Shown here piece after piece: positions 355 to 62,539 of a stretch of DNA of 64,000 bases; the stretch's first letter is position 1, and every line of letters begins with the position of its first letter. The notes beneath the pieces were generated by a model. That model did no database searches. It had not been told where the DNA came from and saw only the letters and a program-made list of their open reading frames with translations. The position numbers and the translations under genes are program-made. This DNA is from Candidatus Micrarchaeota archaeon (GTDB taxonomy: Archaea; Micrarchaeota; Micrarchaeia; Anstonellales; Anstonellaceae): assembly GCA_026413805.1 (NCBI GenBank), contig JAOAKE010000002.1:3599-67598 (forward strand), written 5' to 3'.

Positions 355-2703
355 ATGGAAAATGAAGAAACTGCCCCCGAGGGGCAGGAAAAACAGGAAT
401 TGGGAAAGAACATCTACGATTACATTACTGAAAAGGAGCTTCGCCAGTACAGGAGCATGAATGCAGAGGAGCTTTTAGCCAAGCGAAGGTACTTTGAAGA
501 GGAGATTGAAAGGCTAGTGAAAGCAAGGAAAGAAGAACCAAGATATTACCTTGACCGAGATCGCGCCCGCCTTATTGAAGATTTTAAGAATAAGATGCAG
601 ATAATTGATTCCCTGCTTGCCCAGGCAGAAGCAGCCGATGCCGAGGAGCTTGACGCTGCTATTGTAGAAACCATCCAGAAGCACATTTCTTTGATTACCG
701 ATAAAATGAAGCAGAATGCAAAGGAGATAGAAGCCTTGCAGCTCGAGATAGAGCAGGCTCCCCAAGCAGCTAAAATAAAAGAGCAAGAGGAGGCCATAAA
801 GAAAAGGCAGAATAGGCTTGAAGCATGGGAAAAGGGATGGAAAGCAAAGCGGGAAGCTCTGAACAATGAGAAGGAAGAGCTCGAGGCTAAGCTTGAGAAG
901 CACCTTGCGTTCATCGCAAGGCTTGGCAAAAGAAAAATGCTTAGCGAGGATGAACTAATCGTAAAGCAAAATATTGAGGAGGAAGCAGAGGAAATAAAGG
1001 TGCAAATCGCCAAAGTTACTGCCAAAATAATCAAATTTGAAAAGAAAATAGAAGAAAAAACTCTTTCTTTAAACGAAGAGATAAGCAAGCTTGAAGCAGC
1101 GTTGTCCGCAATTAAGAAAGAAATAGAGAGCGAAGTAGCCAAAAAGAAAGAAAGGCTTCTCCAGCTGGAAGCTTTGAACGAAGAGCTCAATCGCCATCTT
1201 GAAGCAAAGGTGAGATTTCTACAAAGCCACGGGGTTGAAGTTGAAGAAACAAGCAAAGATGGTGCTAAAACAAGCAAAGATGGTGCTAAATTAATCCTTC
1301 CTAAAGAAGTTCCAAAAGAAGTCGAACCTAACCAAAAGGAGCCTAAATTACTCCCTCCCAAAAGAGTCCCAGAAGAAATTACGCCTGACCAAAAGGAGCC
1401 AGGCGAAACTGTCCCGACCAATAGCGCGGACCCGACTAGGGTAATTAGCGACTATGTTGCATTGCTTCGAGCAAAGGAAAAGTGGCGAAATCGCTTTAAG
1501 GGCAATTTCATGCGCAGAATTCTCTTAGTACGGAAGGACGATGCAGTTCTTGCAAACGAAAACCAGATTCGCCAAGACTTCCGAGAGCTTGTGCGAGAGA
1601 CTCTCAATGCTTCCCCCCAAAGAAATGCTGCCCTTAAATCAATCTACGAGGACATAGGAAATAGGCTGAACCGGGGAGACAACGTCACTAGCTTAGAAAA
1701 GACACTAAGGTGGCTGCGAAAGCCGGCAGTGGCAATCGGAAGGGTTGCGATAGGTGCCGGTCTAGTCGCTCTTGGCTCACTATCAGGAGGGGCAGTAGGA
1801 GTGGCAGCGATTGCCACAGGCGGCGTGCTAGGCGGAATCGGCCGCTTTGTTGGCGTAGATGCTGCATGGGATCGCATTCGGCATGCTTGGACTGGAAGGG
1901 AAAAGAACAAGCACGGGCTGGAATACGCAGCTTCTGCCCAAGTTTTCTACAACAATGTTTCTGGAGCTAAGCTAGAAGAACGCGTAAATGCAATTGGCAC
2001 AGAAAATGTTGAAGGCACTGCAAACAATGTAGACAACGCCTTCATAAAATACGCTGAGAACACAGGAAAGAACAGGATGTGGAAGAGGCTGGCTGCATTG
2101 GCAGCTGCATTCATTCCTCCAATTGCTCTGAAATACTTAGCTGGAGGAGAGGCGCATCCACAGGCAGGCACAGGCAAGGCAATACAACCCAGTGAAACTA
2201 ACGCCTCACCCAAGCCAGCAGCAAGCGAAGTTCAGCCACAGGCAGGCACAGGCAAGGTCATCCCACCAGAAAAGGCTACTGCTCCGCCCAAGCCCGCCTC
2301 TGAAGGCTTCACTGTTCCTGACAAAGGTGGCATTTGGCATATCAGCGAGCAGATCGCACAGAAGTACATACCTGAATTCAAGCACCTCCCATCTGCCGAT
2401 AAGAATGTCGTAGTTGATGCGATCAAAGACTACATAATCCAAGAAAAGGATAGGCTGTTTGAGCCACACGAGGTTATCCCCAGGCCGATTGAAAATGGCG
2501 GGCCATGGCTGAAGAAGGGAGCCGACATGGCCTTCAACAGAGAGGATCTATTAAAAGCAATAGAGAATGGGGTGCCAAAGAGGATTCGCGATATATTAGG
2601 CACAGACCTTAAGGGAGGCATTCCAAGGCCAAAGAGCCTCAGCAGTGACATTATAGGCAAAGGACACATAAAGGCAGGAAGGGTAGCAGCCGGCAGGGTA
2701 TAA
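355..2703 (+). CDS. large coiled-coil protein (782 aa) with Gly-rich putative membrane segment and low-complexity repeats; function unknown
   Basis: The N-terminal ~300 aa are strongly E/K/L-rich heptad-like sequence. A tandem TSKDGAK repeat is present. The segment AIGRVAIGAGLVALGSLSGGAVGVAAIATGGVLGGIG looks like a glycine-zipper transmembrane helix. A duplicated PQAGTGK(A/V)I.P motif follows. No recognisable catalytic motif. Confidence 0.6.
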   Translation: MENEETAPEGQEKQELGKNIYDYITEKELRQYRSMNAEELLAKRRYFEEEIERLVKARKEEPRYYLDRDRARLIEDFKNKMQIIDSLLAQAEAADAEELDAAIVETIQKHISLITDKMKQNAKEIEALQLEIEQAPQAAKIKEQEEAIKKRQNRLEAWEKGWKAKREALNNEKEELEAKLEKHLAFIARLGKRKMLSEDELIVKQNIEEEAEEIKVQIAKVTAKIIKFEKKIEEKTLSLNEEISKLEAALSAIKKEIESEVAKKKERLLQLEALNEELNRHLEAKVRFLQSHGVEVEETSKDGAKTSKDGAKLILPKEVPKEVEPNQKEPKLLPPKRVPEEITPDQKEPGETVPTNSADPTRVISDYVALLRAKEKWRNRFKGNFMRRILLVRKDDAVLANENQIRQDFRELVRETLNASPQRNAALKSIYEDIGNRLNRGDNVTSLEKTLRWLRKPAVAIGRVAIGAGLVALGSLSGGAVGVAAIATGGVLGGIGRFVGVDAAWDRIRHAWTGREKNKHGLEYAASAQVFYNNVSGAKLEERVNAIGTENVEGTANNVDNAFIKYAENTGKNRMWKRLAALAAAFIPPIALKYLAGGEAHPQAGTGKAIQPSETNASPKPAASEVQPQAGTGKVIPPEKATAPPKPASEGFTVPDKGGIWHISEQIAQKYIPEFKHLPSADKNVVVDAIKDYIIQEKDRLFEPHEVIPRPIENGGPWLKKGADMAFNREDLLKAIENGVPKRIRDILGTDLKGGIPRPKSLSSDIIGKGHIKAGRVAAGRV

Positions 2704-2783
2704 GGCAAGCCTCTTGAACTAACAGGCTGCCTGCCCTTTAGCATTTTTGCTTCAAGTGCTTATTTCCCTCCCTTGATGTCAAT

Positions 2784-45213: not shown

Positions 45214-45544
45214 TGTGACTCTCCCAAAAAATCGTTCAAATTCGGTGCGCAAGGTAAAAAGGCGCGCTCCATCAGGCGAAGTGCACACGCTTTACAGAAG
45301 GAGGCAGAAGGGAAAGAGGCATACCTGCCCAATAAGCGGAAAGCCGCTTCAGGCAGTGAGCTCCTTGGAAGGCAACCTTTCAAGGCGCAGGCCTAACCGA
45401 AAATTCGGCGGGCAGCTTTCATCTGGCGCAGCCTCACGCATAATAGTCCTTGCCACGCGCGTCAAGGAAGGAGTCATGAAACTTCAAGACATAGACATCA
45501 AGCTTCTTCCTTATGTCAAGCGCTACCTTGCAAGAAAGAAGTAA
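45206..45544 (+). CDS. rpl34e: ribosomal protein L34e
   Basis: L34e family (RRRQKGKRHTCPISGKPLQAV). GTG start. Confidence 0.75.
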   Translation: MHNVTLPKNRSNSVRKVKRRAPSGEVHTLYRRRQKGKRHTCPISGKPLQAVSSLEGNLSRRRPNRKFGGQLSSGAASRIIVLATRVKEGVMKLQDIDIKLLPYVKRYLARKK

Positions 45545-45560
45545 GCAAAAGGAGGAGCAG

Positions 45561-46151
45561 ATGATAATAACAATCTCTGGCTTGTCAGGAAGCGGCAAAA
45601 ATACAATCGGCAGCATAGTTGCAAAAAGGCTGAAGCTTAGGCATGTCAACCCCACATTCAAGAAGCTGGCAGAAGAGCGCCGCATGGACCTGCTGGAATT
45701 CCAAAAAAAGGCAGAGGCAGAGCCCAGGATTGACAAGGAATTTGACGCAGCTTTGATAAAAGAAGTTGAGAAAGGCCCATGCGTTGTGACGACCTGGCTT
45801 GGCCCATGGATGATACTAAATGCAGACCTGCGTGTCTGGATAGATGCCTCGCAACAGACACGGGCCCAGAGAATTGCAAAAAGAGACGGCATGACTTTGG
45901 AAAAGGCGCTTGAGCACATAAGCGCACGCGACTCCTCAAACCGCTCAAGGTACCTCTCAATATACAATATAGACATCTGCGACCATTCGGGCTTTGACTT
46001 GGTGATAAATTCAGAGAAGTTCAAGCCAGAGCAATCTGCCCAGGTAATCATTAATGCTGCCTTGTTAAAGGCTGGAAAGCCAAAAAAAGGAAGGCCCGCT
46101 TTGCAGAAAAAGGTCCAAAGGAAGGCGGGCAAGAAAGTGAAAGGAAAATAA
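45561..46151 (+). CDS. cmk: cytidylate kinase (archaeal)
   Basis: P-loop GLSGSGKNT. Conserved L34e-cmk-L14e order. Confidence 0.82.
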   Translation: MIITISGLSGSGKNTIGSIVAKRLKLRHVNPTFKKLAEERRMDLLEFQKKAEAEPRIDKEFDAALIKEVEKGPCVVTTWLGPWMILNADLRVWIDASQQTRAQRIAKRDGMTLEKALEHISARDSSNRSRYLSIYNIDICDHSGFDLVINSEKFKPEQSAQVIINAALLKAGKPKKGRPALQKKVQRKAGKKVKGK

Positions 46152-46178
46152 GCAGTTTTTTGCAACGGAGGAATTTTT

Positions 46179-46367
46179 ATGGCGGCTATATCTGTTGGGC
46201 GCGTGTGCGTAAAGTTAAAGGGGCGAGACGCAGGCGAAAAGGTAGTCATAACAAAGATAATAGACAAGAATTTCGTCATGGTTCGCTCGGCTGCGAGGAA
46301 GAAAAACCCTGAGAGGCGCTGTGCCATTGTCCATCTTGAGCCAACCGAAACAGTAGTTAGCGCCTGA
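46179..46367 (+). CDS. rpl14e: ribosomal protein L14e
   Basis: KOW-type L14e (ISVGRVCVKLKGRDAGEKVVI). Confidence 0.85.
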   Translation: MAAISVGRVCVKLKGRDAGEKVVITKIIDKNFVMVRSAARKKNPERRCAIVHLEPTETVVSA

Positions 46368-46401
46368 TTTTTCAAAGCGCCTGCCGGCAAGGGTATTATA
46401 G

Positions 46402-52605: not shown

Positions 52606-53811
52606 CTAATCAGGGAACGCCGCATAGCAGTTCCTTGCGTCATCACTGGCTTGGCTTATAAATTTGCAAATCTCCTTGTCATAAGCCACTATGGCTGCCC
52701 GGTAATAGCACTTGTCTTTCCAAGCAGTGTCCGACACCTTTCCGCAGTCGTCTGCAACAGGCCCTTCTTCTACATGCAGGATGCTGTTTGCATAGCACTC
52801 CGTCCTTTGCGAGCCTGTCTCAAGCCCGTTGCAAAGAGAAGGCATCCTGTTAGCCATTGCAGCAGCGTAGTAGCATCCTGCCTTGAGAAGGCTGATTTTT
52901 ATCTTGGTGCAAACTGAAACATCTGCTGTCTCTTTTGCAAACTCTGAGTAACACCAGTTCCTGTCTGTGCCGCTTCCCACAGCCATCTCGGGTTCTACCT
53001 TTTCGCAGAACCTTTCATCCTTTCTTTCAGCTGCAAAATGCAAGTAACACCTGTTTCGGTAGTCGCTGCCAGCAGTGGCAAGGTCGCAGCCTGATGGGTC
53101 GCCCAGCCTCTTTGAGGCAAGCTCCAAGCAATAGTCTTGCACAGCCGCAAAGCTTGCAAGCTTGCACTCCAAAAAGTCCCTTTTCACCACTGCCCTGCAC
53201 GCATGCCTTTCAGCAGGCGTGCTTATTTTCTCACAGGCACTTGTGTCGCTTTTGTTTTTTGCATATTCATAATAGCACCAGTCGCTTGAGCAATACGAGT
53301 AATCCTCCTTTTCCAATGCGATGCACAAGCCCCTTTTTTCCAAGTCAAGCAAAAGCATGCACTCTGGCAGCACGTTCTTGAGGCAGACCAGCCTTTTGTC
53401 ATAGTCTGCAATGAGGTTGCATATCTCTTCTGACTTTTCCCTTCTTGCATTTTCAGTCAGGCATTCTACCCTTAATTCAGGGTTGCTTATCTTCCTGCAC
53501 ACCTCCAGGCTTTTGTTTGCAAAAAGCGAATAGCACCAGTCAATCTTCTCCACCGAATAGATATTTTTGCACAGTTCAACGTCCCCCCTTTCGCGCGCAA
53601 GGTTGTAGAAGCACTCATCGCGCTGGAGAACGTTGCCTTCTTTGCACGGGGAAAGAGCAGTCTCGTTCTTTTCAGAGCCATTCCTGCTAGCATTTTCTGC
53701 AACCTCTTCCCCCACAATAGGAGCCGGTTTTTTTTCCGTGCAGCCTGCAATAAGGATTAACAGGAAAACTGCTGCTGCCATTGCAAAGGCTAGCCATCGT
53801 GCCGTGCCCAT
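52606..53811 (-). CDS. secreted Cys-rich repeat lipoprotein (putative), ~400 aa
   Basis: Signal plus lipobox-like MGTARWLAFAMAAAVFLLILIAGC. At least 6 copies of a ~35-aa module [DN]xCY..[FY]A....D..C.KI are present. The longer start at 54036 would overlap a tRNA on the other strand. Confidence 0.5.
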   Translation of the reverse strand: MGTARWLAFAMAAAVFLLILIAGCTEKKPAPIVGEEVAENASRNGSEKNETALSPCKEGNVLQRDECFYNLARERGDVELCKNIYSVEKIDWCYSLFANKSLEVCRKISNPELRVECLTENARREKSEEICNLIADYDKRLVCLKNVLPECMLLLDLEKRGLCIALEKEDYSYCSSDWCYYEYAKNKSDTSACEKISTPAERHACRAVVKRDFLECKLASFAAVQDYCLELASKRLGDPSGCDLATAGSDYRNRCYLHFAAERKDERFCEKVEPEMAVGSGTDRNWCYSEFAKETADVSVCTKIKISLLKAGCYYAAAMANRMPSLCNGLETGSQRTECYANSILHVEEGPVADDCGKVSDTAWKDKCYYRAAIVAYDKEICKFISQASDDARNCYAAFPD

Positions 53812-53874
53812 TTTATGCACCACTGCCCTTTCGAATGCAGCATTTTTAATGATATTCGCCAAAACTATCCTTTT

Positions 53875-53995
53875 GCGGAGATGGCAGAGCCTGGTCAAAT
53901 GCGCGAGGCTTAGGACCTCGTGCCTTAGCGGCTGCGGGGGTTCTGGCTTTTTTGGCATAGCCCAAAATTGCCGCCTATAAATCCTCCTCTCCGCA
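53875..53995 (+). tRNA. tRNA-Leu(UAG) with a 35-nt intron in the T-loop (56/57)
   Basis: Acceptor GCGGAGA/TCTCCGC plus A, then a T-tract. D-arm GCA-GAGCCTGGTCAAA-TGC. Anticodon arm CGAGG-CTTAGGA-CCTCG. Long variable arm. GGGGG-TTC, then TGGCTTTTTTGGCATAGCCCAAAATTGCCGCCTAT, then AAAT-CCTCC. Confidence 0.72.
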
Positions 53996-54019
53996 CCTTT
54001 TTTATTAACAAGCTTCGAT

Positions 54020-55090
54020 ATGATGGGCATGCTCATTTTTCAATCATATGCACAAAAGCAAGAAAGCTCCCACGAGGAAGACGAACGCCGCTTCGGAATA
54101 AGGATGCGAAAGCCATTTTATGAAATATCAAGTGTGTTTAGCGAAGAAATCCAGACTGCTCTGCCCGAGATAGAAAAAATATTCCAAAAGAAGGGCCTGT
54201 CCGAGTTTATTTCTACCCTGACGCCTGGCACCCAAAATGCAATATACGCGGCATCATTTGCGTGGGGCTATGAAAATGCGGTGCGCTATGTCAAAAGCGC
54301 CATGAAGCTTGAGGAGGTGAAGAACGCCGCTGATTCTGAGGAGCGAAGCAAGGCAGTGATGGAAAGCATCTGCTCGCAGGCGCAAAGCGAAAAGCCCGCG
54401 GAATACAAGGAAAGCGCCAGCTTTGTTTGGGGCTTCTACAACGAAGACTTGAAAGAAACGCAGGCCCAAAAGGCAAAGACCGAGCGCATTCTAAAAAGCA
54501 GTGAAAAGACGAAGGAAGAAATTGAGCTGCCCTCTAGCTCTCAAGCAGCCGTTTCTCTTTCCATAGAGCACGACTCCACCACCCCCTCCCTCCTATATTG
54601 CGCTTCATCGCTGCAAGCAGAGGAAGAACAAAAGGAGCAGCAGGCAATCGCACAAAAGAGAGAGGAGCTTGCGCGCTTGATTGAAGCCCCGCAGGCCAAA
54701 CTCATCATCCAAGAAGCAAAAAAAGAAGGAAGCGCTGAAAAAGAAGAGGAGATGGAAAAGGCAAGGCAGATAGCCCTCCAAAGAAAAGAAGAGCTAATTG
54801 AAGAGTACCAGCGGACAGAAAAGAAAATAGCAGAGGCCATAAAAGTCCTTGACAAGCTTGAAAGCGACAAAAAAGAAGAGCTGCAGCGAATTGCGTCCAT
54901 GCTCCCCAGGGAGCTGGAAGCAGTTGTGCTGCGCCGCGGCCATCTTCTTGCAAGCCGCAAAGCCCTAAAAGCGCAGCTTGTAAAGTGGCTGGCGTTTTCC
55001 TCTGCAACTCGCTATGCCCTCAAAAACATGCCTCCAGAAAGGCTATTTAAGCTCATCTCCCTTTCCTCTCTTTTCAGGTTTGGAAGGTAG
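54020..55090 (+). CDS. hypothetical coiled-coil protein (356 aa)
   Basis: Long ORF, E/K/A-rich, no motif recognised. Confidence 0.45.
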   Translation: MMGMLIFQSYAQKQESSHEEDERRFGIRMRKPFYEISSVFSEEIQTALPEIEKIFQKKGLSEFISTLTPGTQNAIYAASFAWGYENAVRYVKSAMKLEEVKNAADSEERSKAVMESICSQAQSEKPAEYKESASFVWGFYNEDLKETQAQKAKTERILKSSEKTKEEIELPSSSQAAVSLSIEHDSTTPSLLYCASSLQAEEEQKEQQAIAQKREELARLIEAPQAKLIIQEAKKEGSAEKEEEMEKARQIALQRKEELIEEYQRTEKKIAEAIKVLDKLESDKKEELQRIASMLPRELEAVVLRRGHLLASRKALKAQLVKWLAFSSATRYALKNMPPERLFKLISLSSLFRFGR

Positions 55091-56841: not shown

Positions 56842-57714
56842 TCAGAACCCCAAAAGGTAAATTTCACTCCCGTCAGGGAGGAGGATGCTTGAAGGCCATT
56901 TGAACAGCTCTTCTTTTTTTCCATCACTCTTCTTTGCATTCTCAGCAGTGCATTTTTCTTTTTGCATGGCGAATATCTCCATTTTAGAATTCCTAATCGC
57001 AGAGTTAATGTCCCTGATTAAGCCTTCGCAAAAGCTAGCCAGCCTTTCAAGATTTGCCTCTGACAGGCGAGCCATCCTGTCTATGAATAAATAGCCTGTC
57101 TTCTTTTTGCCAGTTGCCACTTCTATATTCCACCTGCTCCAGCGGTAAGTGGAGTATAGCGAATGTGCCAAGAATGCCGATGCCGCCCCAAGCCCTATTG
57201 CAGTGATTGGGGAGGGAAAAGCTGCAAAAAATGCTCCTGCTATCGCCATTGTCCAGAAAGCCGCAGAATCTTTTAGCAAGTATTCTCCTTCTTTTGAAGG
57301 TGGCAGCTCAAGAAAAGTGCCAAAAGCAATCTTGGCATATCTTTCGGCATTTCTTGCAAGCAGCCTTTTTTCGGCATTGCCTCTGATCTCTTCTATCTTT
57401 TGCTCAACGCGACCATTTTTTATAGACATTGCAATCTCTTGCACCAGCCTGAGGGTTTTGGCAGAATACTCCAAGTATCTTATTTTCTCTTCTATTTCCT
57501 CTTTTGTCTTTTCCTTTTCCAAAAGAGGCATTCTACGGCGTATAGCTACATTGTTTTCATCCACTACCCATTCCTTTGTTGCCAGGTTTCTTACTGTCCT
57601 GAGGCATCCCAAAAAAGAGTAGCTCTCAACCCTTCTGAAAAATTTCTCGCGCCTGCCTTCTTTTCCTGCGACAGGGCTTGCGCTGGACTTTGAATCCCTA
57701 AGAAGGAGCTCCAT
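56842..57714 (-). CDS. hypothetical membrane protein (290 aa)
   Basis: ORF with a central hydrophobic segment (FWTMAIAGAFFAAFPSPITAIGLGAASAFLAHSLY). Confidence 0.4.
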   Translation of the reverse strand: MELLLRDSKSSASPVAGKEGRREKFFRRVESYSFLGCLRTVRNLATKEWVVDENNVAIRRRMPLLEKEKTKEEIEEKIRYLEYSAKTLRLVQEIAMSIKNGRVEQKIEEIRGNAEKRLLARNAERYAKIAFGTFLELPPSKEGEYLLKDSAAFWTMAIAGAFFAAFPSPITAIGLGAASAFLAHSLYSTYRWSRWNIEVATGKKKTGYLFIDRMARLSEANLERLASFCEGLIRDINSAIRNSKMEIFAMQKEKCTAENAKKSDGKKEELFKWPSSILLPDGSEIYLLGF

Positions 57715-57867: not shown

Positions 57868-58500
57868 ATGTCTTGGTTTAAAAAGAACCCCAAGGGGACG
57901 AATGGCGAGGTTTACCAAGCCCTCAGAGAAGGGCTTGATAAGATGAAAAGGCTGCAAATTGAGCGCATTCCTTTAATGGTAGAGGAAGCAGGCCCATCAG
58001 GGGAATCAAAAAAGGCGGTGGGCTGGTCGCCAATAAACAGGCTCAATCTCGGCTATTATCCGTATGCAACTCTGCACGAAATAGAAAAGGAGAAGATAGA
58101 CGAAAATAAGCACTACATAGTGGCATCCCTTTTTTATAGGAAAGGGGTTGGGGGCGAACCAGACATAGAAAGAGTAGAGGTCGTGCACCGGACACGCATC
58201 TTTCCGCTATTTCCAGCTTCCGGCAAGCATTACTATTCTGTCGCTTATCATTACGACGGCGACAGCATAAAAATTTTCGCAGACGACAACCAAAAGATAG
58301 AAGGCTGGAAGGGCGCAGAGGTTGAAGAAGCTATTAACAAAGGCATCCGCGAATATCTTGCAATAACAAAAGAACTGATGGAAAAGGCAGGAGTATTCAA
58401 GGCACTTGAAAAAATCGCAAACCGGGCAGTTTCTCCCTTTGATCAGATTTTGTCCGATATGCGCAATAGCATTGAGAAGGCAAAAAAACACCCCCTATAA
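57868..58500 (+). CDS. hypothetical protein (210 aa)
   Basis: ORF with good coding appearance, no motif recognised. Confidence 0.4.
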   Translation: MSWFKKNPKGTNGEVYQALREGLDKMKRLQIERIPLMVEEAGPSGESKKAVGWSPINRLNLGYYPYATLHEIEKEKIDENKHYIVASLFYRKGVGGEPDIERVEVVHRTRIFPLFPASGKHYYSVAYHYDGDSIKIFADDNQKIEGWKGAEVEEAINKGIREYLAITKELMEKAGVFKALEKIANRAVSPFDQILSDMRNSIEKAKKHPL

Positions 58501-58513
58501 ATATGGTGGTTTT

Positions 58514-59467
58514 ATGCAGGGAACCCAAGCAGCCATGCGCCCCACCCTCCAAGAGGCTCTAGGCAGTGTTAATTCCGAAGTTAAAAACCGCATAAGAGGT
58601 GCACAGGTACTCATTAAGCCCAATTTTGTGGATCCACAAATACCAAGGGCGTGTTCAACACCAGCAGCAATAGGCACGGTTGCACGCTGGGCTTTTTTTC
58701 ACGGTGCGGACCGTGTCCTTGTAGGAGACGATGGATGCCTGCATTCCCAGGAAAAAATGCTTGGGAGTGGGATAAAAACCTTCTCAAGCCGAGCCGGTGA
58801 TCTTTTAGGAGTTACAGATGAACTGCGAAAAGTCGTGGCTGAAACTGGAAAAAAGGCTGGCTATATCGAGATGGCTTCTTTGCGCACAGTAGAGTTTGAA
58901 GGAATTCTGCTCAGGGACACTTCGGAGTTTATGGTGGTCAATCTCACTCTTCCAAAAGTGCATGGCGAATATGAGTTCAGCGGAGTTTGCAAAAACCTCA
59001 TCGGGCTAATACCTCCTGAAAAAAGGTCGGAAACAGTACACCCATCAAGCGGTAGAGAGATAGGCTTGGAGTTGAAATATGCTGTATCCTCCGACACCAG
59101 CATCAAGCCTTTGTGCTCCCCGCAGATTGTGTATGTGGATGAAAGCAACCGCCAAAAGCAATTTGACGTTATGCAAAAGCTGATAAATTACGCAAGGACT
59201 GCCGGAAACTTCCTGCTCCATGTGATAGATGGAAGCATGGGCCTGATTCTCCACGAACATTTTGGGCCCAGAGTCAAGCTGGGCTTCGCAGCGGCAGGCA
59301 CCGACCCCGTCCAAGTTGATAGCATATGCTACAAGTACCTTAACATACCTTCAGTCTTTTACCTTCCAGGCGGCCAAGTTGGCAAAATGGCAGGTAAGCA
59401 AGTTCTGATATACGACAGCGATAGCCAAGGTCTTTGGACCGGGCTTGAATTATCTAATAAAAAATAA
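58514..59467 (+). CDS. DUF362-domain protein
   Basis: GAQVLIKPNFVDPQIP...AAIGTVARW is a DUF362-like signature. Start at the ATG at 58514, preceded by the GTGGTTTTATG junction motif. Confidence 0.5.
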   Translation: MQGTQAAMRPTLQEALGSVNSEVKNRIRGAQVLIKPNFVDPQIPRACSTPAAIGTVARWAFFHGADRVLVGDDGCLHSQEKMLGSGIKTFSSRAGDLLGVTDELRKVVAETGKKAGYIEMASLRTVEFEGILLRDTSEFMVVNLTLPKVHGEYEFSGVCKNLIGLIPPEKRSETVHPSSGREIGLELKYAVSSDTSIKPLCSPQIVYVDESNRQKQFDVMQKLINYARTAGNFLLHVIDGSMGLILHEHFGPRVKLGFAAAGTDPVQVDSICYKYLNIPSVFYLPGGQVGKMAGKQVLIYDSDSQGLWTGLELSNKK

Positions 59468-59472
59468 GTTCA

Positions 59473-59697
59473 AGCCCCCGGCGAGGATCGAACTCGCTAC
59501 CTGTTGTTTTCTTGTTGTTACTTCTCAGGCTTCCCTTGGGAAGTAACGTAGAAACCCGCCCGCAGTTTCGCAAGGGGGTTTCTCGCCCAGTTCCGCTCTG
59601 TTTGGTGTTCGGGAGGAAGTAACGTAGAAACCCGCCCGCAGTTTCGCAAGGGGGTTTCTCGTACAAGACAACCGCTCTACCAATGAGCTACGGGGGC
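59473..59697 (-). tRNA. tRNA-Thr(UGU) with a 153-nt canonical-position (37/38) intron containing a tandem 46-nt direct repeat
   Basis: Minus-strand exon 1 (59697-59662): GCCCCCG-TA-GCTC-ATTGGTA-GAGC-G-GTTGT-CTTGTA. Exon 2 (59508-59473): A-ACAAC-AGGTA-GCGAG-TTCGATC-CTCGC-CGGGGGC-T. The acceptor, D, anticodon and T stems all pair perfectly. The intron is 59509-59661. Confidence 0.8.
59540..59661. repeat. two copies of a 46-nt direct repeat (GAAGTAACGTAGAAACCCGCCCGCAGTTTCGCAAGGGGGTTTCTCG) at 59540-59585 and 59616-59661, inside the tRNA-Thr intron
   Basis: The copies are exactly identical and start 76 nt apart (30-nt spacer). Each contains an internal inverted repeat GAAACCC...GGGTTTC. Confidence 0.85.
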
Positions 59698-59768
59698 CCA
59701 CAGAAAACTTAGCACATATCATTTTAAAGGTTGGTCGGAAGAAAACCAAGCTAACAAGGGTGCAGTCT

Positions 59769-59921
59769 ATGGGCAAATTTCCAGAAGCAGACGCATACAT
59801 CTCAAATATTTTTATCTGCCGCAAGTGCAAGGCACGTAACAAGCGAGGGGCAGAGAAGTGCCGAAAATGCGGTTCTCCTTATATGCGCCCCAAGCGCAAG
59901 GACATCAGGGTCAAGAAGTGA
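59769..59921 (+). CDS. rpl40e: ribosomal protein L40e (50 aa), missed by the ORF track
   Basis: Own translation: MGKFPEADAYISNIFICRKCKARNKRGAEKCRKCGSPYMRPKRKDIRVKK. It has the C4 zinc-ribbon pattern of L40e. Confidence 0.75.
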   Translation: MGKFPEADAYISNIFICRKCKARNKRGAEKCRKCGSPYMRPKRKDIRVKK

Positions 59922-62167: not shown

Positions 62168-62229
62168 CCTATCTTTTAGAAATCCTGCAAATCTCCTGCG
62201 CAAAATTCAAAACTAACGCCGCCACTGAA

Positions 62230-62420
62230 GAATAAAACGCCGAGGAGGAGATCTTGCGCGAAAGCGCGAGAGATTTGGAGCGGAAACGCCGCTCCAAACC
62301 GACGAGGGCATTTTAAAAATAAAGCGCCGAGGAGGAGATTTGTTCATGCGCCCTCCATGTTCTGTTTGGGAGGAAGCAGGGAAACCCTCTTTCAGAAAAG
62401 CAGAGGGGTTTTCCTATTGA
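62230..62420 (+). other. structured intergenic region with a duplicated AATAAA(A/G)CGCCGAGGAGGAGAT cassette, GNRA hairpins and two possible SD-led mini-ORFs (21 and 26 codons)
   Basis: Cassette copies at ~62231-62251 and ~62319-62339. Hairpins GCGC-GAAA-GCGC and GGAGCGG-AAACG-CCGCTCC. An imperfect inverted repeat GGGAAACCCTCT...AGAGGGGTTTTCC. GGGA-GGAAGCAG is reminiscent of the SRP RNA helix-8 motif. Confidence 0.3.
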
Positions 62421-62539
62421 ACTCCTAAGCCCCGAAGGGCACCAGATTGCCTTCCCATATAGAGGCTCAAGTCTGGCGCATTACCAGGTTCTGCCACCTC
62501 GGCATGTTAAAGAAATAGCCTGAATAGAATTTAAAGCAA

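Follow-up and report, generated by a model that had tools for sequence, protein, structure and literature searches.

A tRNA-Thr(UGU) gene of Micrarchaeota with a 153-nt intron that contains a perfect 47-nt repeat: a predicted protein-spliced member of a lineage-specific intron family, probably enlarged by a recent local duplication

The DNA analysed, a stretch of 64,000 nucleotides referred to here as the window, carries on its minus strand a tRNA-Thr(UGU) gene at 59473-59697 that is split at position 37/38 by an intron of 153 nt. When run with its intron search, ARAGORN returned one gene, c[59472,59698], with a 153-nt intron and the label Ser(tga), a label that arises because the program places the intron 2 nt off. 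Joining 59697-59662 to 59508-59473 gave a 72-nt tRNA-Thr(tgt) with discriminator U73 in which every stem is Watson-Crick paired, and the variable region of this spliced product is 5 nt long, which excludes Ser identity. Excision of 59509-59661 yields a canonical tRNA, and orthologues with introns of 0-107 nt carry the same exons, as is the case for a tRNA intron. By ARAGORN without intron search and by Rfam at the gathering threshold, no RNA gene was found in the 64-kb window. A sequence-only reading of the locus had described two 36-nt exons that fold into a flawless tRNA-Thr(UGU) around a canonical 37/38 intron of 153 nt, and the perfect stems of the 72-nt product bear this description out. 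The features of the gene are as follows.

59473-59697, minus strand: tRNA-Thr(UGU) gene including its intron (ARAGORN with intron search; spliced 72-nt tRNA-Thr(tgt)).
59662-59697, minus strand: 5' exon, 36 nt, tRNA positions 1-37 (34/36 identity to orthologues).
59473-59508, minus strand: 3' exon, 36 nt, tRNA positions 38-73 (read from the sequence and the spliced product).
59664-59667, minus strand: anticodon-loop C32-G35 (CUUG), 5' strand of the predicted 4-bp central helix of the bulge-helix-bulge (BHB) motif (probability of pairing with CAAG, 0.71).
59509-59661, minus strand: intron, 153 nt, canonical 37/38 position (spliced product and orthologues; fold z = -4.4).
59615-59661, minus strand: repeat copy R1, in which hairpin H1 (intron nt 1-39) is joined by a linker to the 5' arm of a second hairpin, H2, GUUACUUCC (E = 2.8e-8 against a profile of foreign introns).
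59586-59614, minus strand: unique segment S, 29 nt, ancestral H2 loop and top of the H2 stem (UCCC...GGG), which aligns with the intron tail TCCAGAAC...CTGGG of the relative L047.
59539-59585, minus strand: repeat copy R2, which matches R1 at 47/47 positions and lies within a 59-nt insertion (E = 4.4e-8 against the foreign-intron profile).
59527-59538, minus strand: 12 nt, CAAGGGAAGCCU, following R2 and inside the 59-nt gap relative to L047; in the minimum free energy fold they pair with CUUCC of R2 to give a small extra hairpin.
59509-59526, minus strand: intron 3' tail, GAGAAGUAAC-AA-CAAG-AA, comprising the H2 3' arm, CAAG (59511-59514) and 2 nt of the 3' bulge (folds and alignment).
59721-59728, minus strand: TATA-box-like element TTTAAAAT, ~27 nt upstream of tRNA position 1 (read from the sequence; putative promoter).
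59456-59467, minus strand: T-rich run TTATTTTTTATT just past the tRNA, a likely archaeal terminator (read from the sequence).

The tRNA-Thr gene is flanked by genes for L40e, DUF2666, EF-1alpha and S10, and the window also codes for RNA polymerase subunits, a large ribosomal-protein cluster, SecY, Cbf5 and S2, a gene content that identifies it as core chromosome and not a mobile element. Judged by its sequence, the tRNA-Thr(UGU) gene is genuine and lies in this core region, and its expression is predicted. On the plus strand, a DUF362 gene (58406-59467) converges on the minus-strand tRNA-Thr and its stop codon comes within 6 nt of the tRNA 3' end, so that the T-rich terminator overlaps the end of the convergent gene (region 59456-59473). 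Sizeable open reading frames devoid of a Pfam match are interspersed in the core region at 52606-54036 (minus), 54020-55090 (plus), 45434-46390 (minus), 56842-57714 (minus) and 57868-58500 (plus). The DUF2666 protein encoded next to the tRNA matches at 100% identity a protein from a Candidatus Micrarchaeota archaeon MAG. The organism is represented by a single assembly in the collections searched, and for this protein identity falls to 79% in the next closest relative.

Within the intron, two 47-nt units that are 100% identical occupy 59539-59585 and 59615-59661 (plus-strand coordinates), with a start-to-start distance of 76 nt. The sequence-only reading had reported two identical units 76 nt apart; identity and spacing stand, and the unit length is 47 nt in place of the 46 nt given. 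In tRNA orientation, the first unit begins precisely at intron nucleotide 1, in keeping with the earlier remark that a hairpin module abuts the exon-intron junction. Each unit forms a GAGAAACCC...GGGUUUCUAC hairpin of -19.9 kcal/mol (z = -4.0), the same GAAACCC…GGGTTTC hairpin that had been recognised by eye. The window contains no third copy of the unit within 3 mismatches, and 0 of 100 shuffles gave any match. The junction between S and R2 reads CTGGG|CGAGAAACC (CTGGG|CGAG) and that between R2 and the tail reads ACTTCC|CAAGGG; the intron ends in CAAGAA, and a head-to-tail circle of the whole 153-nt intron would join CAAGAA-CGAGAAAC. The length of the intron is outside the 0-107 nt observed in the roughly 30 orthologous tRNA-Thr genes retrieved and above the "less than 100 nt" given for archaeal tRNA introns in a review (PMC4033280), which agrees with its having been called unusually long.

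Orthologous tRNA-Thr genes in 14 related contigs contain introns of this family that are single-copy and 27-107 nt in length. The family module consists of H1 (GRRAARCCC, 16-19 variable nt, GGGTTTCY), which begins 1-2 nt after the 5' splice site, followed by a short linker, usually an H2 with the 5' arm CTTCC(TCC), and a CARG-NN end, the CARG strand of which pairs with anticodon-loop CUUG. A scan of species-representative genomes using a DUF2666 alignment returned 45 Micrarchaeota loci, most of which have tRNA-Thr(UGU) at the same place, with a 37/38 intron of 0, 14, 16, 18, 20, 23, 43, 50, 62, 64 or 107 nt, which implies a fast turnover of introns at this position. Further members of the family came from metagenomes, scanned with the exon and the opening bases of the hairpin as anchor, and from two contigs reached via DUF2666 homologues. 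The members retrieved through DUF2666 share their gene neighbourhood with the window. Many other orthologous tRNA-Thr genes contain unrelated short introns or none.

Two sequence types were distinguished, namely type I, CGAGAAACCC...TACGTTACTTCC (CGAGAAACCC...GGGTTTCTACGTTACTTCC), found in the window and in L047, L048, L049 and L054, and type II, GGAAAACCC...CCTGCTTCC (GGAAAACCC...GGGTTTCCCTGCTTCC), to which a further copy in a tRNA-Ser gene of the window belongs. The H1 core AAACCC/GGGTTT was unchanged in all 12 members compared, and a stem without variation offers no countable covariation. Among type-I genes, identity was 93-100% over the basal 30 nt and 82-99% over the exons, as against 35-82% over the apical 17 nt. 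An apical motif, YUUYCAGAAGGY, is common to many family members and has been lost from both window copies, and the structure of the H1 apical extension did not exceed that of shuffled sequence (mean z, -0.49). The basal conservation goes beyond what the outer helix would need and hints at a sequence-specific role. On the sequences retrieved, the intron family is Micrarchaeota-specific and conserved in sequence.

Other rearrangements were seen in tRNA-Thr genes of related loci. One tRNA-Thr(UGU) gene (L012, ~2650-2760, minus strand) is uninterrupted in the anticodon loop and contains a T-loop intron of ~48 nt that is unrelated in sequence. In another contig (L002, ~2400-2670, minus strand), a tRNA-Thr has a 14-nt duplicated anticodon arm around an insert and is directly followed by a second tRNA-Thr 3' half whose T-arm differs and whose T-stem holds a two-hairpin insert. 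A tRNA-Thr 3' half is present in tandem repeats in a third (L024, 2323-2600).

Global alignment of the window intron with that of L047, the closest single-copy relative (84 nt), opened a single 59-nt gap at intron nt 77-135 (59585-59527). The inserted segment consists of R2 plus 12 nt, CAAGGGAAGCCT, and lies between CTGGG and GAGAAGTAAC in the H2 3' arm. Its deletion in silico restored a 13-bp H2, GUUACUUCCUCCC/GGGGAGAAGUAAC, as in L047. The duplicated unit corresponds to H1 plus the H2 5' arm, and the extra 12 nt give the copy of this arm a partner, so that the insert makes its own hairpin pair inside H2. R1 and R2 also share a window-specific apical loop that is unlike that of all relatives, which indicates that the copy is recent. 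A plain tandem duplication of a 76-nt unit was rejected, since S shows no alignment with the tail: the score was -10, and 1964 of 2000 shuffles scored as well. No microhomology was found at the insertion junctions. The left edge of the repeat coincides exactly with the 5' splice site, a position equally compatible with an RNA-derived copy and with the hairpin base as the boundary.

Adjacent pairs of similar hairpins are present in two relatives, at 90% identity in L004 (Thr, 107 nt) and at 77% identity in L051 (Ser, ~135 nt), and the 107-nt intron of L004 is identical in an independent assembly, L050. These hairpin duplications are best read as older events of the same kind.

The BHB scan of the window pre-tRNA, a permissive procedure useful only for confirming the canonical site, recovered a 5-bp helix h, a 4-bp helix CUUG/CAAG and 3-nt bulges UAC and AAA, and this arrangement removes exactly 153 nt. 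A strict hBHBh' check gave the same 5-bp h, the CUUG/CAAG helix, a 3' bulge AAA and a 5' loop UAC, with H1 at a three-way junction in the position of h'. In place of a continuous outer duplex, H1 stands as a hairpin at the three-way junction, and the motif is therefore relaxed and not strict. Folding of the BHB motif, a check that the sequence-only reading had proposed, thereby returned the canonical site in relaxed form around CUUG/CAAG. Folds of the intron family share the central helix, the 3-nt 3' bulge, H1 at 1-2 nt past the 5' cut, and H2; in L052, L055 and L056 (27-31 nt), H1 is alone and the CARG strand follows a few nt later, so that H1 acts as the outer helix of a compact, near-strict BHB. 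Longer members show it opened out into the relaxed three-way junction. The pairing probability of the central helix in the window intron was 0.71 with the insert and 1.0 without it, and that of H1 was 0.92. In these models, the 59-nt insert is tolerated by the BHB fold and is not helpful to it.

In the predicted precursor, the anticodon stem would be extended by a 4-bp helix between anticodon-loop CUUG and the CAAG near the 3' end of the intron. The 3' cut would fall inside a 3-nt bulge (AA|A38) and the 5' cut (A37|C) inside a 3-nt junction loop, with H1 directly next to it in place of the outer BHB helix and H2 between H1 and CAAG, a three-way-junction design. A splicing endonuclease would cut both sites and an RtcB-type ligase would seal the exons, the intron being discarded, probably as a circle. 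From the modelled structure we infer that the 153-nt intron is spliced at exactly these sites, by EndA cleavage and RtcB ligation; neither EndA nor RtcB was found among the 20 window ORFs scanned.

A search of the window and related loci with the H1 motif revealed a second member of the family in the window, 2.7 kb from tRNA-Thr, inside a tRNA-Ser(UGA) gene.

62325-62503, minus strand: tRNA-Ser(UGA) gene with two introns, of 18 nt (62449-62466, adjoining the anticodon) and 77 nt (62340-62416, T-loop); the spliced 84-nt product is called as tRNA-Ser(tga).
62368-62415, minus strand: H1+H2 core of the tRNA-Ser T-loop intron (E = 2e-11 against the foreign profile, the best match in the window).

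This gene was detected neither by ARAGORN, with or without intron search, nor by Rfam at 62325-62503. With nhmmer and a profile built from 10 foreign tRNA-Thr introns, the only matches in the window beyond the T-loop intron were the two Thr units. The T-loop intron is 74-78% identical to the Thr introns over its full length. Its 3' end, UGAAC, pairs with the T-arm exon sequence GUUCA, where the Thr members pair CAAG with CUUG; from these sequences, the exchange is the change expected if the BHB requirement is to be satisfied at the new site. In 10 orthologous tRNA-Ser genes the T-arm is uninterrupted and the T-loop intron absent, and the intron was therefore gained in the lineage of the window. 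Homologous introns thus occupy different tRNAs and different positions, as in a transposed family, and the occurrence of one family at tRNA-Thr 37/38 and in the tRNA-Ser T-loop means that the host site has changed at least once.

The tRNA-Ser genes of Micrarchaeota displayed further variation. The intron at the canonical position of tRNA-Ser(UGA) ranges from 0 to ~135 nt (L051, 2149-2367; L003, L050), and in the longest, that of L051, two similar hairpins (77% identical) are inserted into the loop of a CCCCTTTTCTT...AAGAAAAGGGG hairpin. At ~62228-62339 of the window (minus strand), as in the tRNA-Ser genes of L003, L023, L051 and L052 and the tRNA-Thr gene of L046, the last 12-18 nt of the tRNA recur 75-100 nt downstream. 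The recurring segment corresponds to the T-stem 3' strand plus the acceptor 3' strand and lies beyond two small hairpins, the first of which is always GGTTT-stem-loop-stem-AAATC; in three of four relatives (L003, L023, L052), a T-rich terminator occurs only after the second copy of the tRNA end. The recurring end may be used as an alternative 3' exon or mark a 3'-proximal intron; it may also be an integration scar or a degenerate tRNA-like element.

Taken together, these observations are consistent with the 153-nt intron being a normal endonuclease-spliced member of a conserved, occasionally transposing, lineage-specific family that was enlarged by a recent local duplication, a reading of the sequence data to which we assign a probability of roughly 0.6. 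The enlargement would have come about when 47-59 nt were inserted, locally and recently, in the H2 3' arm, as a perfect copy of intron nt 1-47 plus 12 nt, turning an intron of roughly 94 nt into one of 153 nt. Its most likely source is a copying error at the DNA level, in an intron that is rich in hairpins and evolves fast. The duplication would be tolerated because the splice-site structure survives, and it is probably without a function of its own.

Whether the repeat is itself mobile was addressed by searches for dispersed copies. The sequence-only reading had suggested a replicative or BHB-associated mobile element and had proposed looking for other copies of the unit in genomes and metagenomes. 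A degenerate 25-base pattern of the 47-nt unit gave 0 matches in genome, metagenome and viral collections, and a covariance model run over 390 kb (the window plus related loci) found copies in tRNA introns only. A looser H1-H2 pattern gave 4 matches in the viral collection, all unrelated terminator-type hairpins. The BHB-associated part of the suggestion survives at the level of the family, which occupies a second tRNA site, the Ser T-loop, that is empty in 10 orthologues. The replicative part is not supported: no feature of the 47-nt unit points to an autonomous element, no copies outside tRNA introns were found in the 390 kb or in the collections, and comparison with L047 shows a single local 59-nt insertion. 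A dispersed (MITE-like) mobile element or a CRISPR-like mini-array was likewise rejected, there being only two copies in the window, both within the intron.

The strongest competitor of local duplication, although an unlikely one, is RNA-mediated mobility, in which an excised BHB intron would have been re-inserted, by reverse splicing or ligation and then into DNA, both in the tRNA-Ser T-loop and in its own H2 arm, producing a nested intron. The presence of the family at two positions in two tRNAs of one genome, the Ser copy being absent from 10 orthologues, is what this process would leave behind. The duplicated unit moreover has its first base at intron nt 1, where the endonuclease would cut, and R2 is directly followed by CAAG plus 2 nt, ending as complete tRNA-Thr family introns do. 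Transposition of tRNA introns has been proposed for Thermoproteales (Fujishima 2010, as reported in PMC4033280 and PMC3239211). The insert is nevertheless an incomplete copy, lacking S and the 3' arm, and neither hand inspection nor the permissive, non-exhaustive scan revealed a convincing second BHB around it. The resident Thr intron is of type I and the Ser copy of type II, so that the Ser copy does not derive from the present Thr intron. Copy number is low, with no more copies in 390 kb or in public collections, and the diverged hairpin duplications of L004 and L051 look like ordinary local duplications. It also counts against re-insertion that, to our knowledge, no reverse transcriptase or other machinery for such a step has been described. 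If RNA-mediated mobility were true, an active RNA-derived transposing BHB intron would have been caught twice in one 64-kb window, and the Thr intron would be the first case of an archaeal tRNA intron nested through self-insertion, offering a direct view of a long-postulated mechanism of intron transposition.

Slightly less probable again is that the hairpin module is functional in itself and that its doubling provides a double dose of an endonuclease or RNA-binding-protein site, or of the core of a stable circular intron RNA. The invariance of the basal H1 stem in 12 of 12 members, the type-I basal 30 nt being conserved (93-100%) relative to the exons (82-99%), and the recurrence of YUUYCAGAAGGY in many members all point in this direction, and archaeal tRNA introns can hold functional RNAs, as in the C/D box intron of Haloferax tRNA-Trp (cited in PMC4090602). 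The shared apical motif, however, is the part missing from the window copies, and the apical region is as structured as shuffled sequence (mean z, -0.49). The invariant stem offers no covariation, the module matches no Rfam family and contains no C/D boxes, and the insert decreases the predicted stability of the BHB. Orthologous tRNA-Thr genes often contain unrelated short introns or none, from which it follows that the module is dispensable.

That the second 47-nt copy is an artefact of metagenome assembly is very improbable. The suspicion has some basis in the single assembly available for the organism in the collections searched, its best other relative being 79% identical in a neighbouring protein, but a collapsed strain bubble cannot make the S-to-R2 junction CTGGG|CGAG, which must be in the reads. 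The extra 12 nt supply the second copy with a matching stem, making the insert structurally coherent, and two independent assemblies, L004 and L050, agree exactly on the 107-nt relative whose hairpins are duplicated.

Several identities were rejected outright. A box C/D guide RNA is not indicated, since no C box (RUGAUGA) within 1 mismatch occurs on either strand of the intron and a single CUGA is present; the sequence-only reading had likewise seen no C/D boxes. Rfam at the gathering threshold gave no match over the whole window, and at E<=10 a scan of 59300-59900 gave only noise, including one snoRNA-model match on the opposite strand (17.1 bits against a gathering value of 39; E = 3). A group I or group II self-splicing intron was dismissed on the lack of an Rfam match at the gathering threshold or at E<=10 and on its length, 153 nt being too short.

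The proposed local enlargement of this family member bears on how archaeal tRNA introns arise, grow and move. One family at one site presents a graded size series, from 27-31 nt (H1 only) through 62-84 nt (H1+H2) and 107 nt to 153 nt, in which the last growth step appears recent enough for the copies to be 100% identical, and a neighbouring tRNA has newly acquired a sister copy at a non-canonical position. Standard tRNA finders miss DPANN genes of this sort: default ARAGORN and Rfam missed both tRNAs. The intron hairpin, which is as conserved in sequence as the tRNA, also provides a target for establishing what a broad-specificity endonuclease, or another factor, recognises.

The closest known system is that of Candidatus Micrarchaeum (ARMAN-2), in which a splicing endonuclease of the epsilon2 type with broad specificity has been found, over half of the tRNA genes of the lineage are disrupted, and relaxed motifs are cleaved (PMC3239211, PMC3488258). 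The 37/38 BHB introns of ARMAN-2 resemble that of the window in phylum and position, in a 4-bp central helix that uses anticodon-loop nucleotides, and in a 3-nt 3' bulge. They differ in length, the ARMAN-2 substrates tested being 13-25 nt and the window intron 153 nt, and the window intron is distinguished in addition by an outer helix that is a conserved hairpin at a three-way junction and by a perfect internal 47-nt duplication. For the Thermoproteales, tRNA intron transposition has been proposed (Fujishima et al. 2010, Mol Biol Evol 27:2233, as summarised in PMC4033280). As far as that summary extends, the two cases share closely similar introns in different tRNAs and positions, here Thr 37/38 and the Ser T-loop. 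Measured against the same summary, the present family belongs to DPANN and not to Crenarchaeota, has two host sites so far, has also been passed on at a single site through many species, and includes one member with a partial copy of itself.

Two further systems share single traits with the window intron. The pre-tRNA-Trp intron of Haloferax volcanii, ~105 nt in length and encoding a box C/D guide RNA according to its citation in PMC4090602, is, as cited there, similarly long for its kind, canonically placed and conserved in internal sequence; by contrast with what that citation reports, the window intron has no C box and no credible Rfam snoRNA match. Some archaeal tRNAs contain several introns that need ordered removal, and twintrons, or nested introns, are known (PMC8450103). 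The window intron is like a twintron in harbouring intron-family sequence within an intron of the same family and unlike one in that no second BHB was seen around the inner copy, which leaves stepwise splicing unsupported. Set beside these systems, the 153-nt intron, though genuine, stands at the extreme of a known kind, the protein-spliced archaeal tRNA intron.
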